From positions 19,907 through 83,906 of the forward strand of contig CAYZZF010000001.1 of the NCBI GenBank assembly GCA_964483115.1: 64,000 bases of DNA, in the 5' to 3' direction. The notes beneath the pieces are model-generated. The model did no database searches and was not told the DNA's origin. It saw nothing but the letters and a program-made list of their open reading frames with translations. The DNA is from an uncultured Gammaproteobacteria bacterium. Its GTDB lineage: Bacteria > Patescibacteriota > Microgenomatia > Levybacterales > UBA12049. Positions 6,562 to 64,000 of the stretch are shown one piece after another. Made by a program: the position numbers and the translations under genes. Numbering within the stretch: position 1 is the stretch's first letter; every line of letters starts with the position of its first letter.

Positions 6562-6562
6562 A

Positions 6563-13331: not shown

Positions 13332-15077
13332 ATGAATTTTTTGAAAAAGTATCTAGGACTTCTAGTGGTTATTTTTCTTTCGATACCCTCTATTCTTTCT
13401 CTTTTTCACCCTGGGTTTTTCCCAATGCATGATGATACGCAAGTGGCGAGAGTTTTTGAGATAGGGAAGGCACTAAGAGATGGAATGTTTCCCGTGCGCT
13501 GGGTTGCAGATCTTGGATATGGATATGGTTACCCAATTTTTAATTTTTATGCACCGCTTGCTTATTATTTTGGAGGACTTCTAAGTATTTTAGGGTTTAA
13601 CGCACTTACCTCAACGAAAATTATGATGGGAACAGGAATTCTACTTTCAGGTATTTTTATGTATTTTTTTGCTCAGGAATTGTTTGGGAAGCTTGGAGGA
13701 GTAGTTTCAGGGTTATTTTATGTTTATGCGCCATATCATGCTGTTGATGTTTATGTTAGGGGCGATGTTGCGGAATTCTGGGCATACGCATTTATACCTT
13801 TAATGTTTCTTGGATTCTACAAATTAATCTCAAATCTTCCGCCTCGCAGCCAGACGAGTAAATCTAAAAACTTGAGATGGGTAATTGTTGGAGCGATTGG
13901 ATTTGCGGGAATTGTTCTATCTCATAATTTAACAGCTATGATGATAATACCATTTTTAATAATTATTCTATTATTCTATTGCTTCGTCGCTTTTAGAAAC
14001 AAGAACCTATTTACTATTTACTATTTACTATTTACTATTTTTTTGGGTTTACTTTTGTCTGCCTTTTATTGGTTACCTGCTCTTTTTGAAATGAAATCTA
14101 CAAATGTACTATCTCAAATTGGAGGAGGGGCAAATTTTCGAGATCACTTTGTTTGTTGGCAGCAGCTTTGGAGCTCTCCTTGGGGTTTTGGAGGTTCAAC
14201 CTCAGGGTGTATTGATGGAATATCTTTTATGGTTGGTAAATTATATATACTTATGTCTACAGCCGCAATTGTCTTAGCAACTTCTTTAATAAATAAAAAT
14301 TTAATCAGAAAAAAAGATAATAGCAAGATATTTTTTATTTTATTTTCAATTTTTGGACTGCTCGTTTCAGTATTCTTGACACTTGAAATATCTAAACCTG
14401 TTTGGGAGTTAATTTTCCCTATGGCATTTTTGCAATACCCATGGAGATTTCTTCTATTTACTTCGTTTTTTACTTCAGTTCTTGCCGGAGCGCTTTTCTG
14501 GTTTTTACGAATTTTATTTTATAAGTTTAGGCACTTTAATACTATATATTATTTAAGCGCAGTAATTGTGATCTTAGCTCTTATTTACCTTAACGCAAAA
14601 CTTTTTATACCACAAATAATTATTAACAAAAATAACAATGATTACACAAATAATGTTGCTCTCAAGTGGATCGCCTCAAAAATATCCGATGAGTATATGC
14701 CAAAAAACTTTAATAAACCTAAATCAGAAAACCAGATTGTAAATAACAAAATATTACCCGCAGAATCTAGTGTAAAAATTTTATACGGCGTTCAAGATAC
14801 TAAAAGTTTACAAGCTTTTATCGATGTTCCTAAAGATACAAAAGTTAAGATAAACACCGCCTTTTTTCCCGCATGGACTGCTTTTGTAGATGGTAAAAAA
14901 GCTGAGCTGTATGCAACAAATCAAGGAGTGAACATTTTTATGTCTTCGGGAAAACATACATTTAATATGGAGTTTATAGAAACGCCGATAGAAAAATTGG
15001 CTAATTTTATCTCTCTTACTGGCTTATTTATACTTATTATTGGTATAATTCCTCTAAAGAGAAGCCTATATAAATGA
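13332..15077 (+). CDS. polytopic membrane protein, GT-C-like family A, paralog 2
   Basis: Same N-terminal signature (LFHPGFFPMHDDT...GMFPVRWVADLGYGYGYP). Contains an in-frame (CTATTTA)x4 tract. Confidence 0.5.
   Translation: MNFLKKYLGLLVVIFLSIPSILSLFHPGFFPMHDDTQVARVFEIGKALRDGMFPVRWVADLGYGYGYPIFNFYAPLAYYFGGLLSILGFNALTSTKIMMGTGILLSGIFMYFFAQELFGKLGGVVSGLFYVYAPYHAVDVYVRGDVAEFWAYAFIPLMFLGFYKLISNLPPRSQTSKSKNLRWVIVGAIGFAGIVLSHNLTAMMIIPFLIIILLFYCFVAFRNKNLFTIYYLLFTIFLGLLLSAFYWLPALFEMKSTNVLSQIGGGANFRDHFVCWQQLWSSPWGFGGSTSGCIDGISFMVGKLYILMSTAAIVLATSLINKNLIRKKDNSKIFFILFSIFGLLVSVFLTLEISKPVWELIFPMAFLQYPWRFLLFTSFFTSVLAGALFWFLRILFYKFRHFNTIYYLSAVIVILALIYLNAKLFIPQIIINKNNNDYTNNVALKWIASKISDEYMPKNFNKPKSENQIVNNKILPAESSVKILYGVQDTKSLQAFIDVPKDTKVKINTAFFPAWTAFVDGKKAELYATNQGVNIFMSSGKHTFNMEFIETPIEKLANFISLTGLFILIIGIIPLKRSLYK
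14007..14041 (+). repeat. (CTATTTA)x4 perfect plus one variant unit, in-frame in the family-A gene at 13332
   Basis: Read directly: ctattta x4 then ctatttt. Encodes LFTIYYLLFTIF. Confidence 0.95.
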
Positions 15078-23132: not shown

Positions 23133-24203
23133 ATGAAGATCGGGATTTTCGATCCATATCTTGATACATTAGGAGGCGGAGAAAAATATATATTTTCAAT
23201 TGTAAAATGCTTAGCAGAAAATAATGATGTTTTTATATTTTGGAAGGTAGATGATGAGCGTAAGATAAAAAGTAGAGCAGAAGAGCGTTTTGGTGTTGAC
23301 CTTTCCGGAATAAGATTTACAGATAATATCTTTGATAAAAATACTTCATTTATTAAGCGAATGTTAAGGACTAGAAATTTCGATGTCATTATATTTTTAA
23401 GCAATGGCAGCATTCCACTTCTACTGGCGAAGAAAAATATTTTGCTTTTTCAGTTTCCTGTGAATTGGGTAGATGGAAAAAAATTTCTAACCAGACTAAA
23501 GTTAAGAAAAATCAATAAAGTAATTTGTTATTCTAATTTTGTTAAAAATTATCTTGATAAGACTTTCTTAATTAATAGCTTGGTTTTGTCTCCTTATGTT
23601 GAAGAAATAGGTTTTAAATATTCAAAAAAAGAAAATATTATTTTGACAGTAGGACGTTTTACAAAATCTATAAATACAAAAAAACAAGAAGTTTTAATTG
23701 ATGCCTTTAAAAAAGTTTATAAAAAAGAATTTATCGGATGGAAGCTCTTTGTTATTGGTTCTGTTCTACCTGGTGATATTTCTTATGTGAAAGATTTAAA
23801 AAATAGAACAAGAGATTTTCCAATTGAGGTATTGGAAAATGTTTCAATATCAGAGATAAATAATTATTATAAAAGAGCCAAAATTTATTGGCATGCTTCA
23901 GGATTTGGCGAAAATTTGGAAAAGCATCCGGAGCGTGCTGAACATTTTGGAATATCAACCGTTGAGGCAATGATGGCAGGTTCTGTTCCTGTTGTGATAA
24001 AGGAAGGAGGACAGAAGGAAATTATTGATGATGGGGAAAATGGATTTTTGTGGAGTAGTTTGGACGAATTAATAAAAAAAACAAAATCATTAATGGAAGA
24101 TAGAAAGTTATGGATGAAGATGTCTGAGGAAGCAGTTAAAAAAGCAAAGACATTTAGTGAGGATAGATTTTGTAAAGAGCTCTCAAAACTTATCAATACT
24201 TGA
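23133..24203 (+). CDS. GT4 (GT-B fold) glycosyltransferase
   Basis: C-terminal HFGISTVEAMMAGSVPVV...EGG (E-x7-E-like region). Confidence 0.7.
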   Translation: MKIGIFDPYLDTLGGGEKYIFSIVKCLAENNDVFIFWKVDDERKIKSRAEERFGVDLSGIRFTDNIFDKNTSFIKRMLRTRNFDVIIFLSNGSIPLLLAKKNILLFQFPVNWVDGKKFLTRLKLRKINKVICYSNFVKNYLDKTFLINSLVLSPYVEEIGFKYSKKENIILTVGRFTKSINTKKQEVLIDAFKKVYKKEFIGWKLFVIGSVLPGDISYVKDLKNRTRDFPIEVLENVSISEINNYYKRAKIYWHASGFGENLEKHPERAEHFGISTVEAMMAGSVPVVIKEGGQKEIIDDGENGFLWSSLDELIKKTKSLMEDRKLWMKMSEEAVKKAKTFSEDRFCKELSKLINT

Positions 24204-26558: not shown

Positions 26559-27502
26559 ACGTAAGCATTATTATTCCAAATTATAATGGAGAAAAGCTTT
26601 TAAAGAAAAATTTGCCGGAGGTTTTTAAAGCAGCAGTTAATTATAAAAATGGGGAAGTAGAAATTATTTTTGTTGACGATGGCTCCATTGATAAAAGTAC
26701 AACTTTTATCAAATCTCAAATCTCAAAACTCAAGACTCAAAACTTCGAATTGAAACTTCTTAAAAACCAGAAAAATCTTGGGTTTTCATCGACGGTAAAT
26801 CATGGGGCAAGAGAAGCAAAAGGAGATATTTTGGTTTTGCTGAATACAGATGTTATTCCGGAGAAAAATTTCCTGGAGCCATTGATAGAGCATTTTAAAG
26901 ATAATGATGTATTTGCGGTTGGGTGCATGGATAAAAGTGTTGAGGACAATCAAGTCATTTTAAGAGGTAGAGGTATTGGAAAATGGCAAAGAGGATTTTT
27001 GGTTCATGAAAGGGGGGAGGTTAATAAAAACAATACTCTTTGGGTAAGTGGCGGGAGCGGAGCTTTTAGAAAATCAATTTGGGATAAGCTTTCTGGGCTT
27101 AATGAGCTTTATAATCCATTTTACTACGAAGATATTGATTTATCCTACAGGGCTCTTAAGTCAGGATATAAATTATTGTTTGAACCCGACAGCGTAGCTT
27201 TGCACGAACATCAAAAAGGTATAATAAGAAGAAAATATTCAAACTTTAAAGTAAAGACAATTGCATATAAAAATCAATTTATTTTTGTTTGGGAGAATGC
27301 TACAGATATTGATATTCAATTTTTACATTTTTTATGGTTACCATACCATTTTATTAAGGCTGTTATAAGATTAGATTGGGCCTTTTTTCTTGGTTTTTTT
27401 GAAGCTTTTATTTTACTGCCGAAGGTTATAAAATTTAGTTTTAAGGCGCAAAAATTATTTATTAAATCAGATAAGGAAGTGGTGAAAGAATTTGAAAAAT
27501 GA
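26555..27502 (+). CDS. GT2 glycosyltransferase
   Basis: VSIIIPNYNGEKLL, FVDDGSIDKS and LLNTDVIPE. Has a heptamer tract inserted between DDGS and the NLGFS motif. Confidence 0.7.
   Translation: MNVSIIIPNYNGEKLLKKNLPEVFKAAVNYKNGEVEIIFVDDGSIDKSTTFIKSQISKLKTQNFELKLLKNQKNLGFSSTVNHGAREAKGDILVLLNTDVIPEKNFLEPLIEHFKDNDVFAVGCMDKSVEDNQVILRGRGIGKWQRGFLVHERGEVNKNNTLWVSGGSGAFRKSIWDKLSGLNELYNPFYYEDIDLSYRALKSGYKLLFEPDSVALHEHQKGIIRRKYSNFKVKTIAYKNQFIFVWENATDIDIQFLHFLWLPYHFIKAVIRLDWAFFLGFFEAFILLPKVIKFSFKAQKLFIKSDKEVVKEFEK
26709..26743 (+). repeat. (TCAAATC)x2 plus three variant units, in-frame in the GT2 gene at 26555
   Basis: tcaaatc tcaaatc tcaaaac tcaagac tcaaaac. Confidence 0.85.
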
Positions 27503-28215
27503 AATTATCAATTATAATGCCTGTTTTTAATGAGGAGAAAACAATACGAGATATTCTTGGAAAAGTGGTTGCTGTAGATATCCAAGGTGTTAGCAAAGAA
27601 ATTATTGTTGTTGATGACGGATCGACTGATGCTAGCGCATCTCAAATCTCAAATCTCAAATCTCAAAACTTAAATTTTAAATTTATACAACATAAAAAAA
27701 ATATGGGGAAAGGAGCAGCTGTTAGGGCAGGAATTGAAAATTCGACAGGGGATTATATCATAATTCAAGATGCGGATTTGGAATATGAGCCAAATGATAT
27801 AAAAAAACTTATTGCGCCAGTTCAAAAGGGCCAAGCACAGGTTGTATATGGGACAAGACTTAATCGCCTGCCGAATTTTACAAGAGATGAGAGAACCTTT
27901 CTTTTTCTGCTGCACTATCTTGGTAACAGATTCTTAAGTCTTGTAACAAGCATTTTATACAGACAGTGGATTACCGATATGGAAACCTGCTATAAACTTT
28001 TTCCCAAAAAAGCTTTAGAGAAAGTAAAACTTAATTCTAGAAGATTTGATTTTGAACCGGAAATCACTTCTAAGTTACTTAAGAAAGAGTATAAAATTTT
28101 AGAAGTACCAATCGTAACTAAACCTAGGGGATACGATGAAGGGAAAAAACTTCACACAATAAGGGATGGATCTATAGCTTTATGGACATTAATAAAATAC
28201 AGATTTATCGATTAA
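27499..28215 (+). CDS. GT2 polyprenyl-phosphate sugar synthase (DPM1/GtrB-like)
   Basis: LSIIMPVFNEE, VVDDGSTDAS and IQDADLEYEP. Has an (ATCTCAA)x4 tract after DDGSTDAS. Confidence 0.7.
   Translation: MKLSIIMPVFNEEKTIRDILGKVVAVDIQGVSKEIIVVDDGSTDASASQISNLKSQNLNFKFIQHKKNMGKGAAVRAGIENSTGDYIIIQDADLEYEPNDIKKLIAPVQKGQAQVVYGTRLNRLPNFTRDERTFLFLLHYLGNRFLSLVTSILYRQWITDMETCYKLFPKKALEKVKLNSRRFDFEPEITSKLLKKEYKILEVPIVTKPRGYDEGKKLHTIRDGSIALWTLIKYRFID
27639..27685 (+). repeat. (ATCTCAA)x4 perfect plus degenerate units, in-frame in the GT2 gene at 27499
   Basis: atctcaa x4 then aacttaa attttaa. Encodes SQISNLKSQNLNFK. Confidence 0.95.
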
Positions 28216-36302: not shown

Positions 36303-38026
36303 TGTTTGGGTTGAAAATGAATAAAAAAATTGTTTATCTTTGTCTTTTTTTGATTATTATTACTGCCTCAATATTAAGATTATGGCAGTTAGGAAATGTT
36401 CCGCCTTCTCCAGATTGGGATGAGGCTGCTCTTGGGTATAATGCATATTCGATTTTACATACAGGCCGCGACGAGTATGGAAAGTTATTGCCGATTGTAC
36501 TTAGGTCATTTGATGATTATAAGCCTGCTTTATATGCATATTTAGTCATTCCATTTATCAAAATAATTGGTCTAAATGTAGTCGCGGTAAGATTACCTTC
36601 AGTAATCTTTGGCATACTGACTGTTATTGCAACATATTTCTTGGTTAAAGAATTACTCGGCGAAAAACTCAAAGCTCAAAATGCAAATCTCAAAATTGTA
36701 ACTCAAAACTCAAAAGTTGAACCACTTGCTCTTTTAACAGCGTTTTTACTTGCAATTTCTCCCTGGCACATCCAATTTTCAAGAATTGCGTTCGAATCAA
36801 ATGTTGGTCTTGCATTTAATGTTTTCTTTGTATTTTTCTTTCTCAAAGGTCTTAAAAAACCATGGTTGCTTATTTTATCTGCTTTCTTTATGGGAATAAA
36901 TATATATGTCTATCAGAGTGAAAAAGTTTTTACCCCGCTTTTACTTTTAGCGCTTGTCGTGATATTTAGAAAAGAGCTTTTTTCTATTCCTAAAAAATAT
37001 ATTATTTATGCAGTAGTTATTGGTATTTTGGTGTTTTTACCAATGGCAGGATATATCATTAGCAACAAAAACGTTTTTGAAAGAGCGCAAGGAGTCAGTA
37101 TCTTTGCAGAGTCCTCACAGCTTTTGGAAGAAAATTCTAAAAAACTTCTTGTTGATAGGCAAAACAATGATTTCTTAGGTCTCATACTAGATAACCGCCG
37201 TATCGTTTTTGCCAAAGAGATTATATCAGGATATGTTTCGCACTTTAATCTTAATTGGCTTTTTATAACTGGTGATATTGCAAGGCATCATGCTCCTAAT
37301 ATGGGACTTTTGTATCTTTTCGAATTACCATTCTTGTTTGTTGGTATCTATGAGTTGATTTTTGGTAAGTTTGATAAAAAAATAAAGTTTTTAATATTTT
37401 CGTGGTTTCTTATTGCACCTATACCAGCGTCAATTACAAGTGGAGTGCCTCATGCGGTTAGGTCCCTCAATTTTCTTCCCATGTTCCAAATATTTATAGC
37501 ATTAGGAATAGTTAGCAGTATTGCTTTAATTTCAAATTTTAAATTTAAAATTTTAAATTTTAAAATATGGAAACTATTTGCTATTTGCTATTTGCTATTT
37601 GCTATTTTTAATTTTTTATATTATTTAGACCAATATTTTGTTCAGCTTAATTATTTTAACTCAAAAGATTGGCAGTATGGCTATAAACAAACAATAGATA
37701 CCGTTAAGCAGATAGAAGTAAAATATAAAAAAATTATTGTATCTAACCAGCCATATTTAGATCAGTCTTATATGTTTTTTCTCTTTTACTTAAAATACCC
37801 ACCCGAATTGTATCAGAAAGAATCAAAATTTGCTTCTGGGGGTTTTAGAGAAAATCATAAATTTGGAAAATTTGAATTTAGGCCATTTAATTTTGAAAAT
37901 GAAAAAGAAACAGAAGTTTTGTATATAGGAAGACCGCTTGATTTTCCGCAAAATGACTTAGGACAAGTAAAAACCATAAATTTTTTAGATGGAACTCCGG
38001 CAATAAAAATGGTTGAAAGATTATGA
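36299..38026 (+). CDS. GT-C membrane glycosyltransferase (ArnT/PMT_2-like), second tandem paralog
   Basis: GNVPPSPDWDEAALGYNAYSIL...DEYGKLLPI...YKPALYAYL. Carries a degenerate heptamer tract plus (AAATTTT)x4 and (CTATTTG)x4 tracts. Confidence 0.6.
   Translation: MMFGLKMNKKIVYLCLFLIIITASILRLWQLGNVPPSPDWDEAALGYNAYSILHTGRDEYGKLLPIVLRSFDDYKPALYAYLVIPFIKIIGLNVVAVRLPSVIFGILTVIATYFLVKELLGEKLKAQNANLKIVTQNSKVEPLALLTAFLLAISPWHIQFSRIAFESNVGLAFNVFFVFFFLKGLKKPWLLILSAFFMGINIYVYQSEKVFTPLLLLALVVIFRKELFSIPKKYIIYAVVIGILVFLPMAGYIISNKNVFERAQGVSIFAESSQLLEENSKKLLVDRQNNDFLGLILDNRRIVFAKEIISGYVSHFNLNWLFITGDIARHHAPNMGLLYLFELPFLFVGIYELIFGKFDKKIKFLIFSWFLIAPIPASITSGVPHAVRSLNFLPMFQIFIALGIVSSIALISNFKFKILNFKIWKLFAICYLLFAIFNFLYYLDQYFVQLNYFNSKDWQYGYKQTIDTVKQIEVKYKKIIVSNQPYLDQSYMFFLFYLKYPPELYQKESKFASGGFRENHKFGKFEFRPFNFENEKETEVLYIGRPLDFPQNDLGQVKTINFLDGTPAIKMVERL
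36665..36714 (+). repeat. degenerate 7-nt periodic tract (aaactca aagctca aaatgca aatctca aaattgt aactcaa aactcaa) in the GT-C gene at 36299
   Basis: Read directly. Confidence 0.75.
37534..37608 (+). repeat. two adjacent heptamer tracts, (AAATTT[T/A])x4 then (CTATTTG)x4 plus one variant unit, in-frame in the GT-C gene at 36299
   Basis: aaatttt aaattta aaatttt aaatttt ... ctatttg x4 ctatttt. Encodes FKILNFKIWKLFAICYLLFAIF. Confidence 0.9.
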
Positions 38027-39714
38027 GAAATCTTAAGATTCTTTTTCTTTTAAGTATTATTCTTTTGGCCGTATTCTTACGTTTTTATAAATTAAATACC
38101 GTTCCACCGAGTGCCTCTTTAGACGAGGCAAGCATTGGTTTTAATGCTTACTCAATTCTTCAAACAGGAGAGGATGAGTACGGATATAAATTTCCCATTC
38201 TTCTCAGAGCTTACGATGATTGGCGCCCTGCGCTTTACGTTTATCTTGTCATTCCATTTGTAAAAATTTTTGGTCTTGATGCTATATCGGTGCGCTTACC
38301 TTCGGTGATTCTTTCAGTTCTAACTATTTTAGCAACTTATTTTTTGGTAAAAAAACTTTTTAAACTCAAAACTCAAAACTCAAAACTCAAAAATACAATT
38401 CAAAATTCAAAAGAATCAGAAATTAGTAGTTTGAGATTAGAAATTTTAGCTTTGCTTTCAATAGGATTGTTCGCGATATCCCCATTGAGTGTATATATTT
38501 CAAGACTTGGCCACGAAGCAAATCTAGGACTATTTTTTGTTGTTTTTGGAATTTTATTTTTTCTGCTTTCGCAAAGAAAAAAAACGTTTCTTATTCTTTC
38601 TGCAATTTTTTTTGCTCTATCTTTATATTCATATCAGAGTGAAAAAATATTTGCCCCGCTTATAGTTATTGCTCTGGGTATTATATACAGAAAAGAGCTT
38701 TATAAGATAAAAAAAACTCTTTTACTATCTATTGTTATAGGATTATTAATTTCGATTCCAATTTTAGCTGCTTCTTTTTCTCCGCAAGCGCTTATTAGAT
38801 TTAAAGGAACCAGCGCATTTGATGCTTCTAATCCTTTATATAGTCAAAGCGCAAAACGTCTTCTTATAAGTCGGCAGAAGAGCGATATTATTGGTGAGGT
38901 TCTAAACAATAGACGAATAACAAGCGTATATATTTTTATTTCCCAATATTTTTCAAATTTTAATCCGCAATGGATTTTTGAGAATCGTGGAAACGAATCA
39001 TTTAAAGCGCCAGGAGTTGGACTTTTATATTTTTGGGAGGCTCCGTTTCTTTTGGTTGGGATATTTTCCCTTTTCAAAAATAAATATTCATCAAAGACAA
39101 AAGCTGTTGTCGCTTCTTGGGCTCTAATAGCTTTTGTTGCTCCTTCTATAACAACTCAAGCCCCTCATGCTATGAGATCTTACAATGTATTGCCAATACC
39201 TCAGATTTTGATTGGCCTTGGGATCCTTGAAATGGGTAAATTCTTCCCTAAAAAGCTTGGAATTATTTTGCTTGCCATTTTAGTGGTTTCTCAACTTTAC
39301 TACTTCTTTAATCAATATTTTTTTGTTTTTCCAAGAACGGAATCATCTTCATTTCAATATGCTTTATCAAATGTAATGCCTTATGTTTCTAGAGTCAAAA
39401 ATAAATATAAAACTGTTGTAATTTCAAATAGGGATAACTTATACCAATCTTATATGTTTTATCTTTTTTATACTAGATATAAGCCAACATTGTATTTAGG
39501 AAACGGAGGTACTGTATCTGGCGGATTTGCTCAAACGCATAAAATTGACAATCTTTTGTTTAAGCCCATTTCTTTTAAAGATAATGCAATAGAAGGGAAA
39601 ACCCTTTATGTAGGTAATCCTTCGGATTTTCCAAAATCCGAAGCTAGTCTTCTTATGTTTGAAAACCTTGATGGAAAACCTGCCGTAGAAGTGGTATCAA
39701 AAAATGAAAATTAA
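38023..39714 (+). CDS. GT-C membrane glycosyltransferase (ArnT/PMT_2-like), third tandem paralog
   Basis: NTVPPSASLDEASIGFNAYSIL...DEYGYKFPI...WRPALYVYL. Carries an (AAACTCA)x4 tract. Confidence 0.6.
   Translation: MRNLKILFLLSIILLAVFLRFYKLNTVPPSASLDEASIGFNAYSILQTGEDEYGYKFPILLRAYDDWRPALYVYLVIPFVKIFGLDAISVRLPSVILSVLTILATYFLVKKLFKLKTQNSKLKNTIQNSKESEISSLRLEILALLSIGLFAISPLSVYISRLGHEANLGLFFVVFGILFFLLSQRKKTFLILSAIFFALSLYSYQSEKIFAPLIVIALGIIYRKELYKIKKTLLLSIVIGLLISIPILAASFSPQALIRFKGTSAFDASNPLYSQSAKRLLISRQKSDIIGEVLNNRRITSVYIFISQYFSNFNPQWIFENRGNESFKAPGVGLLYFWEAPFLLVGIFSLFKNKYSSKTKAVVASWALIAFVAPSITTQAPHAMRSYNVLPIPQILIGLGILEMGKFFPKKLGIILLAILVVSQLYYFFNQYFFVFPRTESSSFQYALSNVMPYVSRVKNKYKTVVISNRDNLYQSYMFYLFYTRYKPTLYLGNGGTVSGGFAQTHKIDNLLFKPISFKDNAIEGKTLYVGNPSDFPKSEASLLMFENLDGKPAVEVVSKNEN
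38362..38410 (+). repeat. (AAACTCA)x4 perfect plus three degenerate units, in-frame in the GT-C gene at 38023
   Basis: aaactca x4 then aaaatac aattcaa aattcaa. Encodes KLKTQNSKLKNTIQNSK. Confidence 0.95.
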
Positions 39715-43862: not shown

Positions 43863-44917
43863 ATATAGCAATAGATATCTCGCCCCTTAAGAGCGGACAT
43901 TTTTTACAACACAGAGTTAGAGGAACAGGTTTTTATATAGATAATTTAAAAAGATCATTAATGAAATATTTTCCAGACAATAAATACACTTTTTTTACTC
44001 GAGGAGAAAAACTGTCCAAAGATATAGACTTAGTTCACTATCCTTATTTTGAGCCATTTTTTTTGACACTTCCTCTAGTTAAAAATCGCAAATCAGCTAT
44101 TACAATTCATGATTTGACTCCTCTTGTTTTTTCAAATGCTTTTCCAAGAGGAATAAGAGGAGAAATTAAATGGCAAATTCAAAAAAAACTTTTGGAAAGA
44201 GCAGATGTAATTATTACAGATTCAGAATGTTCAAAAAAAGACATTACTAGGTATACTGGTATACCTGACAAAAAAATTAATGTCGTTTATCTTGCAGCAG
44301 GAGAACAGTTTAAAAGAATCAAGAATCAAGAATCAAGAATCAGGGATCTGAAAACAAAATATGGATTGCCTGAAAGGTTCGTACTCTATGTAGGCGATGT
44401 TACCTGGAATAAAAATCTGCCAAGGCTGATCGAAGCGATAAAAAAGATTAATGCTACTTTGGTTATGACTGGCAGGACTTTAGCAAGTAAAGATTTTGAC
44501 CGCAATAATCCTTGGAACCAAGATCTAGTTCGGGTTCAAGAATTGGCAAAAGACGATAAAAGAATTATCCGCTTGGATTTTGTTCCGACAGGAGATTTAG
44601 TCTTTCTCTACAATATGGCCACTGTCTTTGCAATGCCCAGCTTATATGAGGGGTTTGGCTTGCCGATTCTCGAGGCTATGAGCTGCGGTTGCCCTGTTGT
44701 AACATCAAAAGAGGGTTCTTTGGAAGAAATTGCAAAAGATGCAGCTTTTTATGTAGATGCATATAATGTCGAAAGCATTGCAAAAGGGATTAAACAATTA
44801 TTTGCAAGCGACAGCCTGAGAAGAGAATTTTCAAAAAAAGGACTGGAACAGGCGAAAAAATTTTCATGGAAAAAAACAGCAGAAGATACTTTAAAAGTAT
44901 ATAAGAAAGTATTGTAA
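43859..44917 (+). CDS. GT4 (GT-B fold) glycosyltransferase
   Basis: EGFGLPILEAMSCGCPVVTSKEGSLEEI. Carries an (AAGAATC)x4 tract. Confidence 0.7.
   Translation: MNIAIDISPLKSGHFLQHRVRGTGFYIDNLKRSLMKYFPDNKYTFFTRGEKLSKDIDLVHYPYFEPFFLTLPLVKNRKSAITIHDLTPLVFSNAFPRGIRGEIKWQIQKKLLERADVIITDSECSKKDITRYTGIPDKKINVVYLAAGEQFKRIKNQESRIRDLKTKYGLPERFVLYVGDVTWNKNLPRLIEAIKKINATLVMTGRTLASKDFDRNNPWNQDLVRVQELAKDDKRIIRLDFVPTGDLVFLYNMATVFAMPSLYEGFGLPILEAMSCGCPVVTSKEGSLEEIAKDAAFYVDAYNVESIAKGIKQLFASDSLRREFSKKGLEQAKKFSWKKTAEDTLKVYKKVL
44314..44341 (+). repeat. (AAGAATC)x4 perfect, in-frame in the GT4 gene at 43859
   Basis: aagaatc x4. Encodes KNQESRIRD. Confidence 0.95.
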
Positions 44918-48429: not shown

Positions 48430-49464
48430 ATGACTAAAAATGTTCTTATTATTGGAGGGGCAGGTTTTATCGGTATAAACTGCGCATCTTATTATTTATT
48501 AAAGGGTGACAAAGTTACAATTTTTGACAACTTTTCAAGAGAAGGAAGTAGGAAAAATATAGAATGGTTGAAAGGTGAATTTACAGATAAGAAAGTTAAT
48601 ATAATAATAGGAGATATAAGACATGATTTACATAAACTTGAAAAATTAATAAAATCTGCGGATTTGATTTTTCATTTGGCAGCGCAGGTTGCCGTAACCA
48701 GTTCAGTTGAAAATCCCCGGGAGGATTTTGAAATAAACGCCTTGGGTACTTTTAATGTGTTGGAAGCTGTAAGAAAATCTGCAAGCAAAGCCGTTTTAAT
48801 TTACAGTTCCACAAACAAGGTATATGGAGGATTAGAGGACCTAAAAATTGCAGAAGGGAAAACAAGGTATAAATTTAAAAATTTGCCAAATGGAGTTTCA
48901 GAGGAAAGGAGTTTGGATTTTCATTCGCCGTATGGTTGCAGCAAGGGTACGGCAGACCAGTATGTAAGAGATTACGCAAGGATTTACGGCCTTAATACAA
49001 TAGTTTTCAGACAGTCTTGCATTTACGGTCCGCATCAATTTGGCATAGAGGATCAGGGGTGGGTTGCCTGGTTTATTATTGCTCTAACATTAGGGAAAAA
49101 AATAACAATTTACGGAAACGGAAAACAAGTAAGGGATTTATTGTACGTTGATGATTTGATTAGTGCCTACGACATAGCTGCAAAAAATATTAAAAAAACA
49201 AAAGGACAGATTTATAACATAGGCGGAGGGATAAAAAACACTATTTCTATATGGTACGACTTTAAGCCTATTTTAGAGAAATTGTTTAACAGAAAGTTAT
49301 CTCCCAATTTTTCTAAGTGGAGGCCGGGCGACCAGCCGATTTATGTCTCAGATATCAGAAAAGCCAAGAAAGATTTCGGATGGGAGCCAAAAGTGGAAGT
49401 AAAGGAAGGAATAAAAAAACTCTATGATTGGGTTTTGTCAAACAGGAATTTGTTTAATGCTTAA
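48430..49464 (+). CDS. NDP-sugar epimerase of the CDP-paratose 2-epimerase (RfbE/Tyv) family
   Basis: VTIFDNFSREGSRKNIEWL, IYSSTNKVYGG and LDFHSPYGCSKGTADQYVRDYARIYGLNTIVFRQS...DQGWVAWF closely parallel Salmonella RfbE. Confidence 0.65.
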   Translation: MTKNVLIIGGAGFIGINCASYYLLKGDKVTIFDNFSREGSRKNIEWLKGEFTDKKVNIIIGDIRHDLHKLEKLIKSADLIFHLAAQVAVTSSVENPREDFEINALGTFNVLEAVRKSASKAVLIYSSTNKVYGGLEDLKIAEGKTRYKFKNLPNGVSEERSLDFHSPYGCSKGTADQYVRDYARIYGLNTIVFRQSCIYGPHQFGIEDQGWVAWFIIALTLGKKITIYGNGKQVRDLLYVDDLISAYDIAAKNIKKTKGQIYNIGGGIKNTISIWYDFKPILEKLFNRKLSPNFSKWRPGDQPIYVSDIRKAKKDFGWEPKVEVKEGIKKLYDWVLSNRNLFNA

Positions 49465-50570
49465 TGGAAATTCTTATCTTAAACTGGAAAGATGTTAAAA
49501 ATCCCCATGCCGGCGGAGCGGAAATAATTGCCTTTGAATTTGCCAAACGTTTGGTAGAAGACGGACATAAGGTGACATTTTTTTCAAGAGCTTTTCCTAA
49601 CTGTCTAAAAGAAGAAAGGTTGGATGGCGTAAAGATAATAAGAAAAGGTAACAGATTCAGCGTTTATTTTGAAGTTTTTCTATACTACAAAAATCTTAAA
49701 AATAAACCAGATAGGGTAATAGACATGATAAATACACTTTGCTGGCAAACCCCTCTGTATGTACCTAAAAAAAATCGGATAGCTTACGTAAATCAGTTGG
49801 CAAAGGAAGTTTTTTTCTTTGAATTGTCAAGGCCTTTATCATACATAGCATATTTTTTAGAGGAATTACAGTATTTAACCTACAGGAATACAAGGTTTTT
49901 ATGCTATTCGGAAAGCACAAAAAAAGATTTGCAGGAATTTGGGATTAAAGGAAAAAATATAAGCATATTTTCTATGGGTTTGGATCATCAAAGGTATAAA
50001 AAAAACGGCAAGAAAACAAAGTACCCATTATTTATATATGTGGGAAGATTAGTAAGAATGAAGCGGGTGGATTTTTGCATAAGGGCTTTTTACGATGTTA
50101 TTAAAAAACATAAAAACGCAAAACTGGTAATTGTGGGGAACGGGCCTGACGAGAATAGGCTTTTTGACTTGACTAAAAAACTCAAACTTTCGAAAAATAT
50201 AGTTTTTGTAAATAAAAATAATTTTTTTCTCAAAAAACATAAAAATGACGTAAAAGTAAAACTTATGCAAGAAGCCTGGTGTTTACTTCTCCCCTCCGTT
50301 AAAGAAGGGTGGGGAATGGTGGTAACCGAAGCAGCAGCCTGCGGAACGCCGTCAATAGTTACTAACGTAACAGGGCTTAGGGATTCGGTTATAAAAGATA
50401 AGACAGGCCTGGTTTTATCGGAAAAACCGCCAATAAAAGAATTTTCAGATGCAATAATCAGAGTCATTGAGGATAATGGCTTAAGAGAAAGATTATCAAA
50501 AGAAGCCGTTTTATGGGCCGAAAATTTTAACTGGGACAAAAGTTACAAAGAATTTAAAAAATTAATATGA
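49464..50570 (+). CDS. GT4 (GT-B fold) glycosyltransferase
   Basis: EGWGMVVTEAAACGTPSIVTNVTGLRD. Confidence 0.7.
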   Translation: MEILILNWKDVKNPHAGGAEIIAFEFAKRLVEDGHKVTFFSRAFPNCLKEERLDGVKIIRKGNRFSVYFEVFLYYKNLKNKPDRVIDMINTLCWQTPLYVPKKNRIAYVNQLAKEVFFFELSRPLSYIAYFLEELQYLTYRNTRFLCYSESTKKDLQEFGIKGKNISIFSMGLDHQRYKKNGKKTKYPLFIYVGRLVRMKRVDFCIRAFYDVIKKHKNAKLVIVGNGPDENRLFDLTKKLKLSKNIVFVNKNNFFLKKHKNDVKVKLMQEAWCLLLPSVKEGWGMVVTEAAACGTPSIVTNVTGLRDSVIKDKTGLVLSEKPPIKEFSDAIIRVIEDNGLRERLSKEAVLWAENFNWDKSYKEFKKLI

Positions 50571-57002: not shown

Positions 57003-58214
57003 ATGAAAGTTGCTTTGTTATTTTATTCATTAACAATAAAAGGGGGGGGTTCAAGGCAGTTTTTACAATTAGCCAACTACCTACAAGATAAAGGCAACGA
57101 AGTAACTGTTTTTGCAATAGAATACAATTCCAGAGAATGTTTTCCGGAGCTTTGTAAAAAATTAAATATAATATCTCTTAATAAGGATAAGGAATTTTTT
57201 AACCACTCACAAGATTTTTCCATAAAGGAACAAATAAGAAATTTCTTTCTCGTATTTAAACTGGGATATTTAGTTTCCAAATATGATTTTCGTCTTTTAA
57301 ATCCTCATGAGTGGCCGGCTAGTTGGGCAGCGGTGGTAGCGAAGTTATTAAAATTAGGTAAACCTAAAATAATTTGGATGTGTAATGATTTATGGCATGT
57401 ATATAATCCCTACATAAAAAATTATAGCCTTAACTTCAAACTTAGAAGGATGCTTGATGTTTTTGTTACTAAGTATTTTGTTAATGACATAGTGGTTCTA
57501 GACAACAGAATTAAAAAATTGGTAAAGATTTTTTATAAAAAAAACGCAAAAGTGGTAAGAAGTGGAATTGATATCAAAAATTTTTTGTCTTTTAAGCATT
57601 CTGACTATAAAAACAAAACGATTAGAAAAAAATTAGGCATAGGAAGTCACGAATGTTTACTTATGTCTTTTGGTATTTTTTATCCTCAGAGAAGGTTTGA
57701 GGATGCAATTTTATCGGTCAAAAGTGTTAAAGATGACTTAAAAGTAAAAAAAGATTTTAAATATGCGATAATAGGGTCCAACAAGAGAGATCCTGATTAT
57801 TTTAATAAGATTAAATTAATGACTAATGAATATAAACTTGATAATTCTGTAAAATTTATTACAAGTTCGGTTAGTGATAAAGAATTGTTGTATTTTTACG
57901 ATTCATGTGACGTATTTATTTTTCCTAATGATAAGCAAACTTGGGGGTTGGCTGTAATAGAGGCAATGGCATTGGGAAAACCCTGTGTGGTATCTACAGG
58001 GTCGGGTGTTTCAGAGGTGCTTACCAATGAAGAAAATGCTCTTCTTGTGAAACCTAGAAACCCATCTCAACTGGCTTTAGCTTTAAAAAAACTCATCGAA
58101 AATACTGAAGATAGAAAAAAAATTGGAATTAACGGTAAAAAGCTTGTTTTATCCAATTTCTCTTGGGAAAAATATTCTTCAGGCATGTTAAATATCATGA
58201 GTAAATATGTCTAA
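57003..58214 (+). CDS. GT4 (GT-B fold) glycosyltransferase
   Basis: QTWGLAVIEAMALGKPCVVSTGSGVSEVL. Carries a G8 homopolymer at codons 13-15. Confidence 0.65.
   Translation: MKVALLFYSLTIKGGGSRQFLQLANYLQDKGNEVTVFAIEYNSRECFPELCKKLNIISLNKDKEFFNHSQDFSIKEQIRNFFLVFKLGYLVSKYDFRLLNPHEWPASWAAVVAKLLKLGKPKIIWMCNDLWHVYNPYIKNYSLNFKLRRMLDVFVTKYFVNDIVVLDNRIKKLVKIFYKKNAKVVRSGIDIKNFLSFKHSDYKNKTIRKKLGIGSHECLLMSFGIFYPQRRFEDAILSVKSVKDDLKVKKDFKYAIIGSNKRDPDYFNKIKLMTNEYKLDNSVKFITSSVSDKELLYFYDSCDVFIFPNDKQTWGLAVIEAMALGKPCVVSTGSGVSEVLTNEENALLVKPRNPSQLALALKKLIENTEDRKKIGINGKKLVLSNFSWEKYSSGMLNIMSKYV
57042..57049 (+). repeat. G8 homopolymer in the first 15 codons of the GT4 gene at 57003
   Basis: aaa ggg ggg ggt encodes KGGG. 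It is the only long G/C homopolymer I saw in this AT-rich window. Confidence 0.9.
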
Positions 58215-61200
58215 TAAGATAAAAAGCGCAATAAATTTGTTAATATTGTTTGCAATTTCAATACCATTTTTATGGTTTAAGAACGGTTATTTTATAGCTT
58301 GGGCCGATGGAACTTTACCACTTAGGCCCCTTAAGTATCTGGAAACACTAATATATATGTGGTCTGGTATTCCAAATAGTGGCAACCCGAATGTTGTTTC
58401 TCCTACCGCATTTATTTTATTTGGACCACTTTACTTGGTAAACTTTGTCGTTTTTCACTTTAACGTGGTTTCTTTACAAAAGATTTTCTTCTCTTTATGG
58501 TTATTTTTACCAATTCTAGCAACTCTTCTTTTGTATAACTATTTGTTTAAAGCAGATACAAAAAAATATCTATACATTTTTTTTGCAATTTTATTCTACT
58601 CATTCAACCTGTATCGCGCGGGAATGTTTGGCGATGTTGCTAATATGTCAATTTATGCGGCAGAGCCATTAGTCCTCCTTTTAGTAATTAAAGCAGTAAA
58701 TGAAAACAAAAACTTTTTAAAATATTCGATACTGATTGCCTTATCTTCTCTTATTGCCTCCGGAGCAGGCGCTAATCCGCCTATGTACGCAGTGTTTTTA
58801 CTACCGCCCCTTTTATATATTTTTCTAATATTAATTGAAAGTTTTATTAAAAAAAATTTCTTATCTAAATTTTACTCAATAGCAAAATTTATTGTTCTTT
58901 CCACTTTTATGTTTTTACTTGTAAATGCTTATTGGATTTTGCCATTTCTCTATCAATATCTGGGAGTCGCCGCGTCAAGCGGTTTAAAAGGAGCTAATCT
59001 TCTAGATTGGAGTTTAGGGACAAGTTCTGTAACAAGCCTTGCCAATATCATAAGAATGCAGGGGGCGTGGGATTGGTATTCGGGTGTCGGAAGCGATCCG
59101 TATGTCCCGTATGCAGCAAATTACCAGAATAACCCCGTTTTATTGTTTTTAGGTTTTTTGCTTCCTATTCTCGCCTTTGTGGCTGTTTATTTTGTCCGAA
59201 ACAGATATACAATATTTTTTACGCTTATTACTCTAATTGGAATTATTTTTAGCCAAGGATCGCATTCTCCTTTTGGGCCAATTTACAATTTTTTAACGGC
59301 TCGCCTTCCACTTTTTTGGATGTTTAGAAGCAGCTGGTATAAATTTAGTTTTTTGGTTGCGCTTGGCTATAGTTTTCTTGGAGCAGTGTCGGTTGCATAT
59401 ATTTTTGACATTTTGATTAAGCAAAAAAGAAAATTTCTAAATTTAAAATTAGCATACGCATTTCTTGTTTTTGTTATTGCGGGAACCCTAATTTATGCAT
59501 ATCCGTTTATAGACGGAGAAAAATTTCCAAAACCCGGCGTCCATAAAATTTTACCGGCAAGTCACATAAAAGTCCCGGATTATGTTTATAAATCTGCAGA
59601 TTGGATAAACAATCAAAAGGAAACTTTTAGAACTTTTGTATTTCCTAATATGCCTTCCTTTATCTATACTTGGGATTTTAACGGCCTGACCGATGTTTCT
59701 TTTTATCTTTATGATAAAGGAGAATTATTTACGTCAAATCAGGTGGGGACAACCGGATTGGGGAATTCTGTCGGCGATATTAATTCTCAAATATATAATG
59801 GAATTTATTTTAATGACTATGCTAATGCGCTAAGACTGGCAGGAATTTTGGGCGCAAAGTATTTGGTCGAGCGAAAAGACATAAGATATAATTTTTATGG
59901 AGGATACGATTCTCCCGCATTTGTTAACAAACAATTGCAAAATGCGCAAGGTTTAAAGCAGACAAATACCTTTGGAGAATGGAATTTCTACAAACTTTCG
60001 AATAATTACTTTTTACCCCTCTTTTATGTGCCAGAAAATTTAACTTATTCGGAATCTAGTGTATCTTCGATCGGAGATATATTAACTTTAAGTGATTCTC
60101 TAAAACAGCAAATTCTATTCTCCGATTTTAAAAATAACAGAGAAAATGTCGAAATTAGACCGTTAATAAATAATTATGTGCTAAAAGCAAATTGCATATT
60201 GTGTAAAAGCAATGGCCTAAAAGAAATAGAAGACAAAATTCAAATGCCTTTTGTGCAACTTTTGCCCGATTCTCCGTTTTACTTCTTGGTAAAAAACAAA
60301 GAGCAGAAACAACTCGCTACCTATAAGGGATTGCCTGATAAGGAGATTAGTCTTAATTTAGATTTATCTAATAGAAGGCTGGTAGAATTATCAAAAGTTT
60401 TGACAAGAGAGCAAAAAGATAATTCTGATACATTAATTAAAAATTTAATACAAAAATATAAAAATCATATTCAAGAAGCATTAGGTAAAATAAATAATCT
60501 TTCCGGAATTGAAAAAAATGAGAAACTAATAGAAATACTTGCCTATCTGAAAGTCCAAGACAAATTTTTAGAATTGTTGCCGGACACAGATAAAATTCCG
60601 CAATCTTTACTGCAGGACTTGTCTGTTTTTATTAGCGACACATTGAATAACTTAAGGTCTGAGATTTGGATGACGACAGAGAATACGGATGAAAAATTAT
60701 TTTTCAATATTAATGAAGACGGGAATTATTCTTTTAATATAAAAAATTCTCCGACCCCACCCTCAAAAATATTAATAGATGGAACAGAATACATAAAGGT
60801 AAAAGACATTCAGCTTACAAAAGGAACGCATAAGCTGGAATTAATCTATCCGCAGCCAGATAATCTTCTTGTCGCAGATAACGCTTCATCAAGCGGAGAG
60901 TTTGTTTTAAACTATGGAGAAAAGAAAACATTCGCAGTTAAGAGTTTCGACTATAAAAATACTTACTTAATAAAATTTGAATATAAAGTTTCAGAAGGAA
61001 AGGCGCCTAATATTATACTAGCTCAAGATAACGATCAAAAAGACTGGGACGGAAATTACAGCAGAACTTTGAATTCGGTTCTAAACGGTGACGGAAAATG
61101 GCATACATTTGAGTATGCTTTTACGCCAAACTTGGGAGCAAAAAACGCTTTTTTGCAATTTTATTCGTCCGGTTTTGATTATTCGCAAAGTAAATTTTCA

Positions 61201-62131: not shown

Positions 62132-64000
62132 ATTATTTCTATTTGTATTTATTTTATTAACGCTAACAGTTTTTAAAAATTGGTTTTTTTTAAATCCCCT
62201 TTCTTCGGGTGACTGGAGTTATAACTTCAGCGAGTCTATAAAAACTTTTACAATTTTTCCTTACTCTTGGTTTTTTAACTTAAATGCAGGACTTGGGGGC
62301 ACAAGCCTTTTTATTTTGTCTTTGAGTTCTTATTTTTTATTTACAACATCTTTTTTGTTTAATTTTTTCAAAATTCCCTGGGTTTTAATAGAAAGATTGG
62401 TCTGGTTTTGGCCGTTTTTATTAATTTCTGCTTTCTCCTCTTATTTTTTGTTTAAAAAATTATTTTCTGAAAAGTTCGCATTACTCTCATCTTTTATTTT
62501 TCTTTTTAACTCCTACATCTTAATGATCGTCGGAGGCGGGCAAATGGGTGTAGCATTTGCTTATGCCATGGCTCCGCTAGTTTTATATGTTTTTATTAAA
62601 ACCATTGATTTTTTTAATTTTTCAAAAAATAATATTCAATTTTCAATTTTCAATTTTCAATTACCTTTACTTTCAGGGTTATTATTTTCAATTCTGGTTT
62701 TGTTTGATTTAAGGATTGCGTATATATGCATAACTTCCGTAATGCTGTATTTGGTATTAAATATAAAGTATAAAGTATCAAAAAATAACTTTTTGCGTAT
62801 CTTAAATTTAATTTCTTATTCTTTGATAATTCCGGCGGTAATTACATTTCTTTTGAATTCTTTTTGGATAATTCCGTTGATAGCAGGCGGGAAAAATCCA
62901 CTTGTAGAACTAGGCAGTGTTTACAGCTCTTTAGAGTCGGTTAAATTTTTCAGTTTTGCTAAATTTGAGAATTCTATCGGACTTCTGCATCCAAATTGGC
63001 CGGAGAATATTTTCGGAAAAGTCGGTTTTATGAGACCTGAGTTTCTATTTCTACCAGTACTTGCTTATGCAAGTCTGTTTTTTGCAGCAAAGATTAAAGA
63101 TTCAAGATTAAAGACTTATGTTATTTATTTTGCGTTATTAGGGTTAATCGGAGCTTTTTTGGCAAAAGGGGTAAACGAACCTTTTGGCAGAATATACCTT
63201 TGGCTTTTTAATCATTTCACGGGATTTGTGATGTTTAGGGACCCGACTAAGTGGTACACGCTAGTTGCAGTTTCATATTCAGTTTTAATTCCATTCACTG
63301 TATGGAAGTCTTATGAGTGGTTGAAGTCGCAATCAAAATTTCAAATCTCAAATTTCAAATTTCAAATAAGGTCCAAATCTCAAATTCTCAATTTTCAAAA
63401 CTTATTTTTTTTGCTTGTTACCGGTTACTTGTTGTTCTTAATTAGACCGGCATTTTTTGGTCAATTAACAGGCACATTTAAGCCCCATGAAATTCCAAAG
63501 GATTATATAAGGCTTGAAGAATTTTTAAGCAGTAAAAAAGACTTCTTCAGAATCCTTTGGGTTCCAGAGTGGCAGCGGTTCGGTTTTTTTTCCAATAACC
63601 ACCCGGCAATAGGAGGAGGGGAGATTTTTAAGAAAGATGCAGAAAATCAGATAAAACAGCTTAAACAAAAAGGTACAGAAGGCTTGCTTGAAGATCTGTC
63701 AGTCAAGTATATTATTATTCCTTATGATTCGGAGAAAGAGATATTTCTAAGAGACAGAAAGTATGATGATAAATTGTATGAGAAGAGCATAACTGAAACT
63801 AGGAAAATTAAATGGCTCAGGGAGATTGACGGCTTTGGAAAAATCAAAGTTTTTGAAGTCCCAAATCCCAAAGATCATTTTTGGAGCCCCTCGACTAACC
63901 TTCAAGTTAAATACAGGTATGTTAATCCGACGAAATATGAAGTTTATGTAAAAAATGCAAAAAAGGGAGACTTATTAGTATTCTCGGAGGGTTTTGATAA
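62115..64000 (+). CDS. polytopic GT-C-like membrane protein, 3' end outside the window
   Basis: The frame is open from a GTG at 62115 (VKNYFKLFLFVFILL...) to the window edge (more than 628 codons, no stop) and is not in the ORF track. It has multiple TM helices followed by a hydrophilic C-terminal region, and carries two degenerate heptamer tracts. Confidence 0.5.
   Translation, partial: MKNYFKLFLFVFILLTLTVFKNWFFLNPLSSGDWSYNFSESIKTFTIFPYSWFFNLNAGLGGTSLFILSLSSYFLFTTSFLFNFFKIPWVLIERLVWFWPFLLISAFSSYFLFKKLFSEKFALLSSFIFLFNSYILMIVGGGQMGVAFAYAMAPLVLYVFIKTIDFFNFSKNNIQFSIFNFQLPLLSGLLFSILVLFDLRIAYICITSVMLYLVLNIKYKVSKNNFLRILNLISYSLIIPAVITFLLNSFWIIPLIAGGKNPLVELGSVYSSLESVKFFSFAKFENSIGLLHPNWPENIFGKVGFMRPEFLFLPVLAYASLFFAAKIKDSRLKTYVIYFALLGLIGAFLAKGVNEPFGRIYLWLFNHFTGFVMFRDPTKWYTLVAVSYSVLIPFTVWKSYEWLKSQSKFQISNFKFQIRSKSQILNFQNLFFLLVTGYLLFLIRPAFFGQLTGTFKPHEIPKDYIRLEEFLSSKKDFFRILWVPEWQRFGFFSNNHPAIGGGEIFKKDAENQIKQLKQKGTEGLLEDLSVKYIIIPYDSEKEIFLRDRKYDDKLYEKSITETRKIKWLREIDGFGKIKVFEVPNPKDHFWSPSTNLQVKYRYVNPTKYEVYVKNAKKGDLLVFSEGFD
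62636..62663 (+). repeat. (TCAATTT)x3 plus one variant unit, in-frame in the terminal GT-C-like gene
   Basis: tcaattt tcaattt tcaattt tcaatta. Confidence 0.9.
63341..63400 (+). repeat. degenerate (TCAAAT[C/T])n tract (tcaaatc tcaaatt tcaaatt tcaaata ... aaatctc aaattct caatttt) in the terminal GT-C-like gene
   Basis: Read directly. Encodes KFQISNFKFQIRSKSQILNFQN. Confidence 0.8.

Follow-up and report, generated by a model that had tools for sequence, protein, structure and literature searches.

The G8 tract and its host gene

The stretch of DNA analyzed here (the window) comprises 64,000 bases of contig CAYZZF010000001.1 (assembly GCA_964483115.1, positions 19,907 to 83,906 of the forward strand) from an uncultured bacterium of the candidate phyla radiation (CPR; Microgenomates/Roizmanbacteria-like). 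Near the 5′ end of an open reading frame (ORF) encoding a predicted 403-amino-acid (aa) glycosyltransferase (GT) of family GT4, it carries the homopolymer GGGGGGGG (G8; positions 57042 to 57049), which is the subject of this study. Direct reading of the sequence placed the tract exactly where an initial annotation of the locus had reported it but moved it by one codon: rather than codons 13 to 15, the run occupies codons 14 to 16 (GGG GGG GGT), which specify Gly14-Gly15-Gly16 and follow a lysine codon (AAA) at position 13. In a homopolymer census of the window, no G/C run other than G8 reached 7 bases. The runners-up are four G6 runs (at 13048, 27012, 29032, and 32496) and one C6 run (at 35731), in agreement with the earlier statement that no equal G/C run occurs within the 64 kb. 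The G+C content of the window is 32.7%, instead of the 30% first given.

The assignment of the G8-containing gene to GT4, also made in the initial annotation, is backed by two Pfam matches above the curated thresholds, i.e., PF13439 Glyco_transf_4 (9.4e-10; residues 14 to 191) and PF00534 Glycos_transf_1 (9.8e-33; residues 205 to 380). The AlphaFold2 model of the protein is of high confidence (predicted local distance difference test [pLDDT], 94.6; predicted template modeling score [pTM], 0.92) and displays a predicted GT-B fold of two Rossmann-like domains, with strand β1 at residues 2 to 10 and helix α1 at residues 15 to 29. Foldseek searches with this model retrieved HepE, MshA, BshA, sucrose-phosphate synthase, PimA, and WaaG (E values of 1e-21 to 1e-15). 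Solved GT4 enzymes (HepE 4xso, MshA 3c4q, BshA 3mbo/2jjm, and sucrose-phosphate synthase 6kih) have the GT-B fold in common with the model (template modeling [TM] scores of 0.75 to 0.87), as well as an N-terminal Gly-Gly loop at β1-α1, a C-terminal Glycos_transf_1 domain, and a conserved glutamate (E320 here), whereas the sequence identity to the 403-aa protein is only 16 to 19%. A further difference concerns the E-x7-E motif. Its second glutamate, E320, is present and invariant among 30 homologues, but the first position is an equally invariant glutamine, Q312; Q-x7-E thus replaces the canonical E-x7-E in this GT4 subfamily. Membership in GT4 predicts that sugar transfer by the protein is of the retaining type.

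A glycine loop predicted at the site of the tract

Across 75 aligned full-length homologues, residues 14 to 16 read GGG in the 13 closest sequences and G/N/S-G-G/T/A/S in almost all the others, with Gly15 being invariant in the closest 30. Profile alignment matched this motif with the Gly-Gly of sucrose-phosphate synthase 6kih (AGGQ), BshA 2jjm/3mbo (GGSG), and MshA 3c48, and the AlphaFold2 model places Gly14 to Gly16 at the junction between the β1-α1 loop (residues 11 to 14) and the first turn of α1. As judged from homology and the predicted structure, Gly14-Gly15-Gly16 is the conserved glycine-rich β1-α1 loop of the N-terminal Rossmann-like domain of GT4 enzymes. Because the motif is conserved and sits at this junction, there is a protein-level reason for G-rich DNA at this position.

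Predicted consequences of slippage at G8

The initial annotation regarded the tract as a contingency locus on the ground that poly-G switches are established knowledge, and the literature on Campylobacter and Neisseria bears out this general premise (PMC8355987, PMC2193922). By analogy, G8 could be a slipped-strand contingency locus, in which high-frequency gain and loss of G residues during replication would turn the GT4 gene ON (G8) or OFF (G7/G9), perhaps along with the downstream GT-C gene via translational coupling, and would generate surface-glycan variants for host attachment or phage evasion. We consider this reading the less likely one, but several properties of the locus speak for it. 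The tract is at the accepted threshold, since 7 G or C bases in a row can suffice for phase variation (PMC2193922), and switching rates between 1e-4 and 1.6e-3 per division apply to G8 tracts of Campylobacter jejuni (PMC8355987). It also lies near the start of the gene, as expected of a switch.

The outcome of a slip was derived from in silico alleles by codon walking. Alleles with G5, G8, or G11 remain in frame and end at the normal stop codon. Loss of one G (G7) yields a 22-aa product and gain of one G (G9) a 29-aa product, both frameshifts being terminated within 30 codons, as the initial annotation had proposed to check. No start codon 5′ of the tract that could rescue the shifted frames was found in the G8 gene, which rules out an arrangement with two of three productive frames reached through alternative upstream starts. 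The first in-frame start 3′ of the tract is a GTG at codon 111, use of which would lose most of the N-terminal domain. Given the early stops and the lack of a rescuing start, a slip of one base would be a null allele. The last 8 nt of the G8 gene are shared with the downstream GT-C gene, beginning at the ATG of the latter, and premature termination might for this reason lower GT-C translation too.

The tract could alternatively act at the RNA level, through transcriptional slippage, programmed frameshifting, or an internal Shine-Dalgarno (SD)-like AAGGGGG that makes the ribosome pause or start internally. Indeed, AAAAGGGGGGGG resembles a strong SD sequence, but no ATG, GTG, or TTG is found in any frame within ∼20 nt downstream, so that an internal start driven by AAGGGGG is ruled out. 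Both shifted frames end too early for an alternative product to be made, known transcriptional-slippage sites are mostly A/T runs (PMC2831843), and the feature is unconserved in the homologues described below; all this makes a role of the tract in RNA very improbable.

G8 within codon usage expectation

Whether G8 departs from chance was found to depend on the null model. Independent bases predict 0.05 runs of G8 or longer in the window, and a first-order Markov chain predicts 0.45. The null that we deem most relevant is the resampling of synonymous codons in the 48 ORFs, which make up 94% of the window. It gives a mean of 0.175 G/C runs of 8 or more per window, with a probability of 0.16 for at least one, and a mean of 0.83 runs of 7 or more compared with the one observed. 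Consistently, GGG accounts for 15.5% of the glycine codons, and the 48 ORFs contain seven Gly-Gly-Gly tripeptides. The spelling GGG GGG GGN, which gives a run of 8 or more, is expected at 0.024 per tripeptide, i.e., ∼0.17 per window. GGG-GGG codon pairs occur about as often as expected (two observed versus ∼1.5 expected among 64 Gly-Gly pairs).

The tract is thus real but not statistically exceptional, and chance remains compatible with its presence; no excess of G/C runs over what composition predicts was detected within the 64-kb window, which counts against selection for a switch. In a CPR-sized genome of ∼1 Mb, codon usage alone would produce two or three such runs. As a background, 180 kb of other loci with less than 40% G+C yielded a single G8 along with two 7-base runs. 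In prokaryotic coding sequences as a whole, poly-G and poly-C are underrepresented (PMC2831843).

The glycine loop is spelled otherwise in homologues and paralogues

Protein searches and scans of genome and metagenome contigs revealed no relatives with more than 48% identity other than members of the same population. The closest named match, at 48% identity over the full length, is the hypothetical protein COW99_00460 of "Candidatus Roizmanbacteria" (PIP62143.1). This gene and the G8 gene are alike in having an upstream GT4 partner, a similar G+C content (33% in PIP62143.1), and a K-G-G-G motif, but differ in the gene that follows, which encodes a DegT-type aminotransferase in the former and an AftD-like GT-C protein in the latter.

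We read the codons aligned to residues 14 to 16 in the DNA of 63 homologous loci from other populations. In none of the 63 do the motif codons form a run of 8 bases or longer, although the motif itself is kept nearly everywhere; the longest G run at this place (7 bases) belongs to an acidobacterial locus with 53% G+C. The syntenic Roizmanbacteria orthologue reads GGC GGA GGG, with no G run longer than 3. Within the window, the GT4 paralogue at 23133 to 24203 encodes Gly14 to Gly16 as GGA GGC GGA, and a third GT4 gene (49464 to 50570) has GGC GGA at the loop. Hence, the repeat was not recovered in orthologues of related species, of which the nearest is only 48% identical. The absence of G8 from all these homologues is a second point against a maintained switch.

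The single G8 found in the 180 kb of other low-G+C loci lies at positions 524 to 531 of locus L120 (metagenome contig Ga0315274_10368780; 35% G+C), within an unrelated GT4 gene whose product is 24% identical to the 403-aa protein. There, the tract is part of CCG GGG GGG GCA (Pro-Gly-Gly-Ala; residues 18 to 21 of 385) and also falls on the N-terminal glycine loop. Two such cases in several dozen GT4 genes are compatible both with a loop that naturally gives rise to G runs where genomes are AT rich and with one that has repeatedly been co-opted as a switch.

Tract length in the available assemblies

The exact 403-aa protein was found in only two other assemblies, the Logan contigs of runs SRR5161805 and SRR5161795. 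The former is identical to the window across 9.7 kb. The latter differs by 15 single-nucleotide polymorphisms in 6.3 kb, none of them inside the G8 gene, and therefore represents a distinct strain variant. All three consensus assemblies (the window and the two contigs), which sample one population, carry the in-frame G8, and both Logan contigs pass through the tract unbroken. The GT4 gene is accordingly in the full-length ON frame in every assembly on record, strain variant included, in contrast to the length variation that a switch predicts. Exact-protein lookups of the GT4 gene and three of its neighbors returned the same two Logan contigs and no further contigs with G7 or G9 alleles. The C-terminal ORFs expected from an OFF allele, with codon 111 or codon 126 as their start, were not on record either, in searches where the query for the GTG start began with Val in place of Met. 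We placed no reliance on contig breaks, which are a weak proxy for read-level polymorphism. The initial annotation had held that a uniform G8 in all reads, together with an identical tract without variants in related genomes, would refute its proposal; the uniformity of the tract in the three consensus sequences is a step in that direction, although weak evidence.

The agreement of these assemblies also disposes of a consensus error hiding a shorter, longer, or interrupted tract, a hardly credible explanation that we reject: homopolymers are error prone in sequencing and the source is a metagenome-assembled genome (MAG), but the three assemblies, built from two or more sequencing runs, show no disagreement at any base of the tract, and G8 is the length that preserves both the 403-aa frame and the GGG motif of the homologues.

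Most of the differences in SRR5161795 (11 of 15) fall within 136 bases (58950 to 59085) of the AftD-like GT-C gene, in codons 248 to 293. By codon, this cluster comprises seven synonymous and three amino acid changes, which suggests a recombined or fast-evolving patch.

Genomic context and heptamer arrays

The G8 gene is located in a glycan cluster of more than 20 kb, tightly packed with its neighbors (Table 1). The pair formed by the upstream GT4 gene and the G8 gene is syntenic in Roizmanbacteria and in one further relative, as seen in loci L138 to L142. A domain scan of 25 of the 48 ORFs in the window showed the region from ∼5800 to 62131 to be rich in glycan biosynthesis genes, with nearly all the scanned ORFs matching such families. 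They include at least eight GT2/GT4 genes, at least six GT-C membrane proteins of the PMT_2, GT87, or AftD-like types, genes of the dTDP-rhamnose pathway (RmlC/RmlD-like), several epimerases/dehydratases, and a Wzx-type flippase, which is an unusually large glycan gene load for a small-genome CPR bacterium. No mutS or mutL gene was recognized among the 25 ORFs scanned.

Table 1. Coordinates of the G8 tract, its host and flanking genes, predicted frameshift stops, and heptamer arrays in the window
Feature	Position(s)	Strand	Remarks
Upstream GT4 gene, 414 aa	55754..56998	+	Stop 4 nt ahead of the ATG of the G8 gene
GT4 glycosyltransferase gene (G8 gene; predicted GT-B fold, retaining type), 403 aa	57003..58214	+	ATG at 57003; stop TAA at 58212-58214; Pfam domains, AlphaFold2 model, Foldseek
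G8 homopolymer	57042..57049	+	Fills GGG GGG GG of codons 14-16; T at 57050 is the third base of codon 16
TAG stop met by the G7 (-1) allele	57070..57072	+	In silico alleles, codon walk
TAA stop met by the G9 (+1) allele	57089..57091	+	In silico alleles, codon walk
Downstream AftD-like GT-C membrane glycosyltransferase gene, 1185 aa	58207..61764	+	PF11847 GT-C_AftD, 1e-12
AAATCTC/AAACTCA-type heptamer arrays	6562-6598, 26709-26744, 27639-27675, 36664-36715, 38362-38412, 63336-63367		
Further heptamer arrays	14007-14040, 37528-37564, 37574-37607, 44314-44342, 62631-62662, 63089-63114		

The window also contains many tandem arrays of 7-bp units (4 to 9 copies, several of them 100% perfect) within ORFs or at their start. 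The array-bearing ORFs were for the most part identified as glycan synthesis genes (GT2, GT4, PMT_2-type GT-C, and GT87-like), and six or more different genes share the AAATCTC-type unit. Because 7 bp do not make up a whole number of codons, adding or removing a single copy would change the reading frame, and these arrays look like stronger contingency locus candidates than G8 itself. The Logan contigs of SRR5161805 and SRR5161795 end inside such arrays (at 27642 and at 38363 to 38390). 31-mers common to the arrays at 6570 and 27639 account for the break at 27642. The array at 38362 to 38412 has no duplicate 31-mer in the window, so that the break within it points to either a length polymorphism or a second copy at another place in the genome.

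Incidental spelling or maintained switch

Taken together, our results favor the interpretation of G8 as an incidental, codon-choice spelling of a conserved glycine loop, which is probably slippage prone and currently ON but not shown to be maintained as a switch. This interpretation rests on five observations: the tract matches a protein constraint, codon usage suffices to account for it, it is unconserved, the paralogue spells the loop differently, and no variation was seen. In the scenario that we propose, a GT4 protein from a compact surface-glycan operon of a CPR bacterium would require glycines at residues 14 to 16, and synonymous codon choice would yield the GGG GGG GGT homopolymer incidentally. 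Like any G8, the tract would be a mutational weak spot, at which +1 or -1 slips would lead to null products of 22 to 29 aa and possibly to less translation of the overlapping GT-C gene. Slips of this kind would be sporadic mutations that abolish function and not an evolved mechanism of phase variation.

Five considerations weigh against this interpretation. A G8 at the 5′ end of a surface-glycan GT gene in a 33% G+C genome is the very architecture of proven switches. In the codon resampling, the probability of a run of 8 or more inside the first 30 codons of some gene was 0.05, a criterion picked post hoc and biased, because the glycine loop of GT4 proteins is always at residues ∼12 to 20 and the window is full of GT4 genes. 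The recurrence of G8 at the equivalent loop in L120 could mean that this loop is recurrently used as a switch. The comparison of assemblies has little power to detect variation, since consensus sequences hide minority tract lengths and only two runs and one MAG were available. Finally, the heptamer arrays in other glycan genes raise the prior for repeat-mediated switching in this organism.

The heptamer arrays and the G8 in L120, along with the location of the gene in the large glycan cluster and the gonococcal precedent discussed below, are also what a switch would have in its favor. Mismatch repair could add to them: some CPR lineages, Saccharibacteria among them, lack MutS/MutL, but these are lineage-level statements and the presence of the genes varies among CPR lineages (PMC8406219). 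On the other hand, we found no paper joining Patescibacteria or the candidate phyla radiation with phase variation in a full-text literature search, which we count against a switch. The contingency locus proposed in the initial annotation therefore stands in its prerequisites, namely, a poly-G of 8, a 5′ location, a GT4 gene in a surface-glycan operon, and early stops in both shifted frames, but not in evidence of switching. The step from a tract that could slip to a contingency locus is unsupported in view of the glycine loop spelling, the codon usage expectation, the 0 of 63 homologous loci, and the same G8 in three assemblies. Error in the consensus, a role in RNA, and readings that we did not consider are, even when pooled, improbable.

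Comparison with known poly-G systems

The genome of C. jejuni harbors roughly 20 to 30 poly-G tracts, whereas the 64-kb window holds a single tract, in line with neutral expectation. The poly-G genes for lipooligosaccharide (LOS), capsule, and flagellar glycosylation in this species resemble the G8 gene in their low G+C content and in tracts of 8 or more within clustered surface-glycan genes (PMC8355987). Those tracts, mostly G9 to G10, switch genes ON and OFF by frameshift in a background devoid of mismatch repair, at the per-division rates given above (PMC8355987).

A precedent at the level of the encoded residues is pgtA (pglA) of Neisseria gonorrhoeae, which specifies a pilin galactosyltransferase. 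As in the G8 gene, an in-ORF poly-G is read as consecutive glycines, +1 and -1 changes truncate the product, and the same peptide can be spelled with or without the tract (PMC2193922). The tract-free spelling is GGGAGCGGGG in the nonvariable pgtA alleles (PMC2193922) and GGC GGA GGG in the Roizmanbacteria orthologue. The two cases differ in that the pgtA tract encodes four consecutive glycines in the middle of the gene (residues 246 to 249), ranges from 9 to 20 G among isolates, and switches in reporter assays (PMC2193922), while the G8 studied here encodes residues 14 to 16 in a catalytic-cleft loop and is the same in all assemblies. Moreover, the tract-free counterpart is in our case a protein only 48% identical, as opposed to alleles of the same species in pgtA. 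Proven switches are mostly G9 to G10 or longer and differ between isolates. G8 has the architecture of a switch but lacks the defining evidence, i.e., length variation, overrepresentation, and conservation of the repeat.

Implications

On either reading, G8 lies within known kinds of system. Were it a true switch, it would extend pathogen-style phase variation of surface glycans to ultrasmall, uncultivated CPR bacteria, whose host attachment and phage exposure are poorly understood, and the tract would be a simple read-level marker of population heterogeneity. A working poly-G switch and the heptamer arrays could then constitute a multilocus "phasotype" that diversifies the surface glycan of an episymbiont, the first contingency loci described in CPR, a prospect that we regard as tentative and rather doubtful. 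If the tract is instead incidental, as we judge likelier, the Gly-Gly(-Gly) loop of GT4 enzymes would be a natural source of 5′ G runs in AT-rich genomes. Since the loop yields such runs by itself, the rule of thumb "poly-G near the start of a GT gene" would overcall contingency loci unless it is combined with a codon-aware expectation and with tract length variation.

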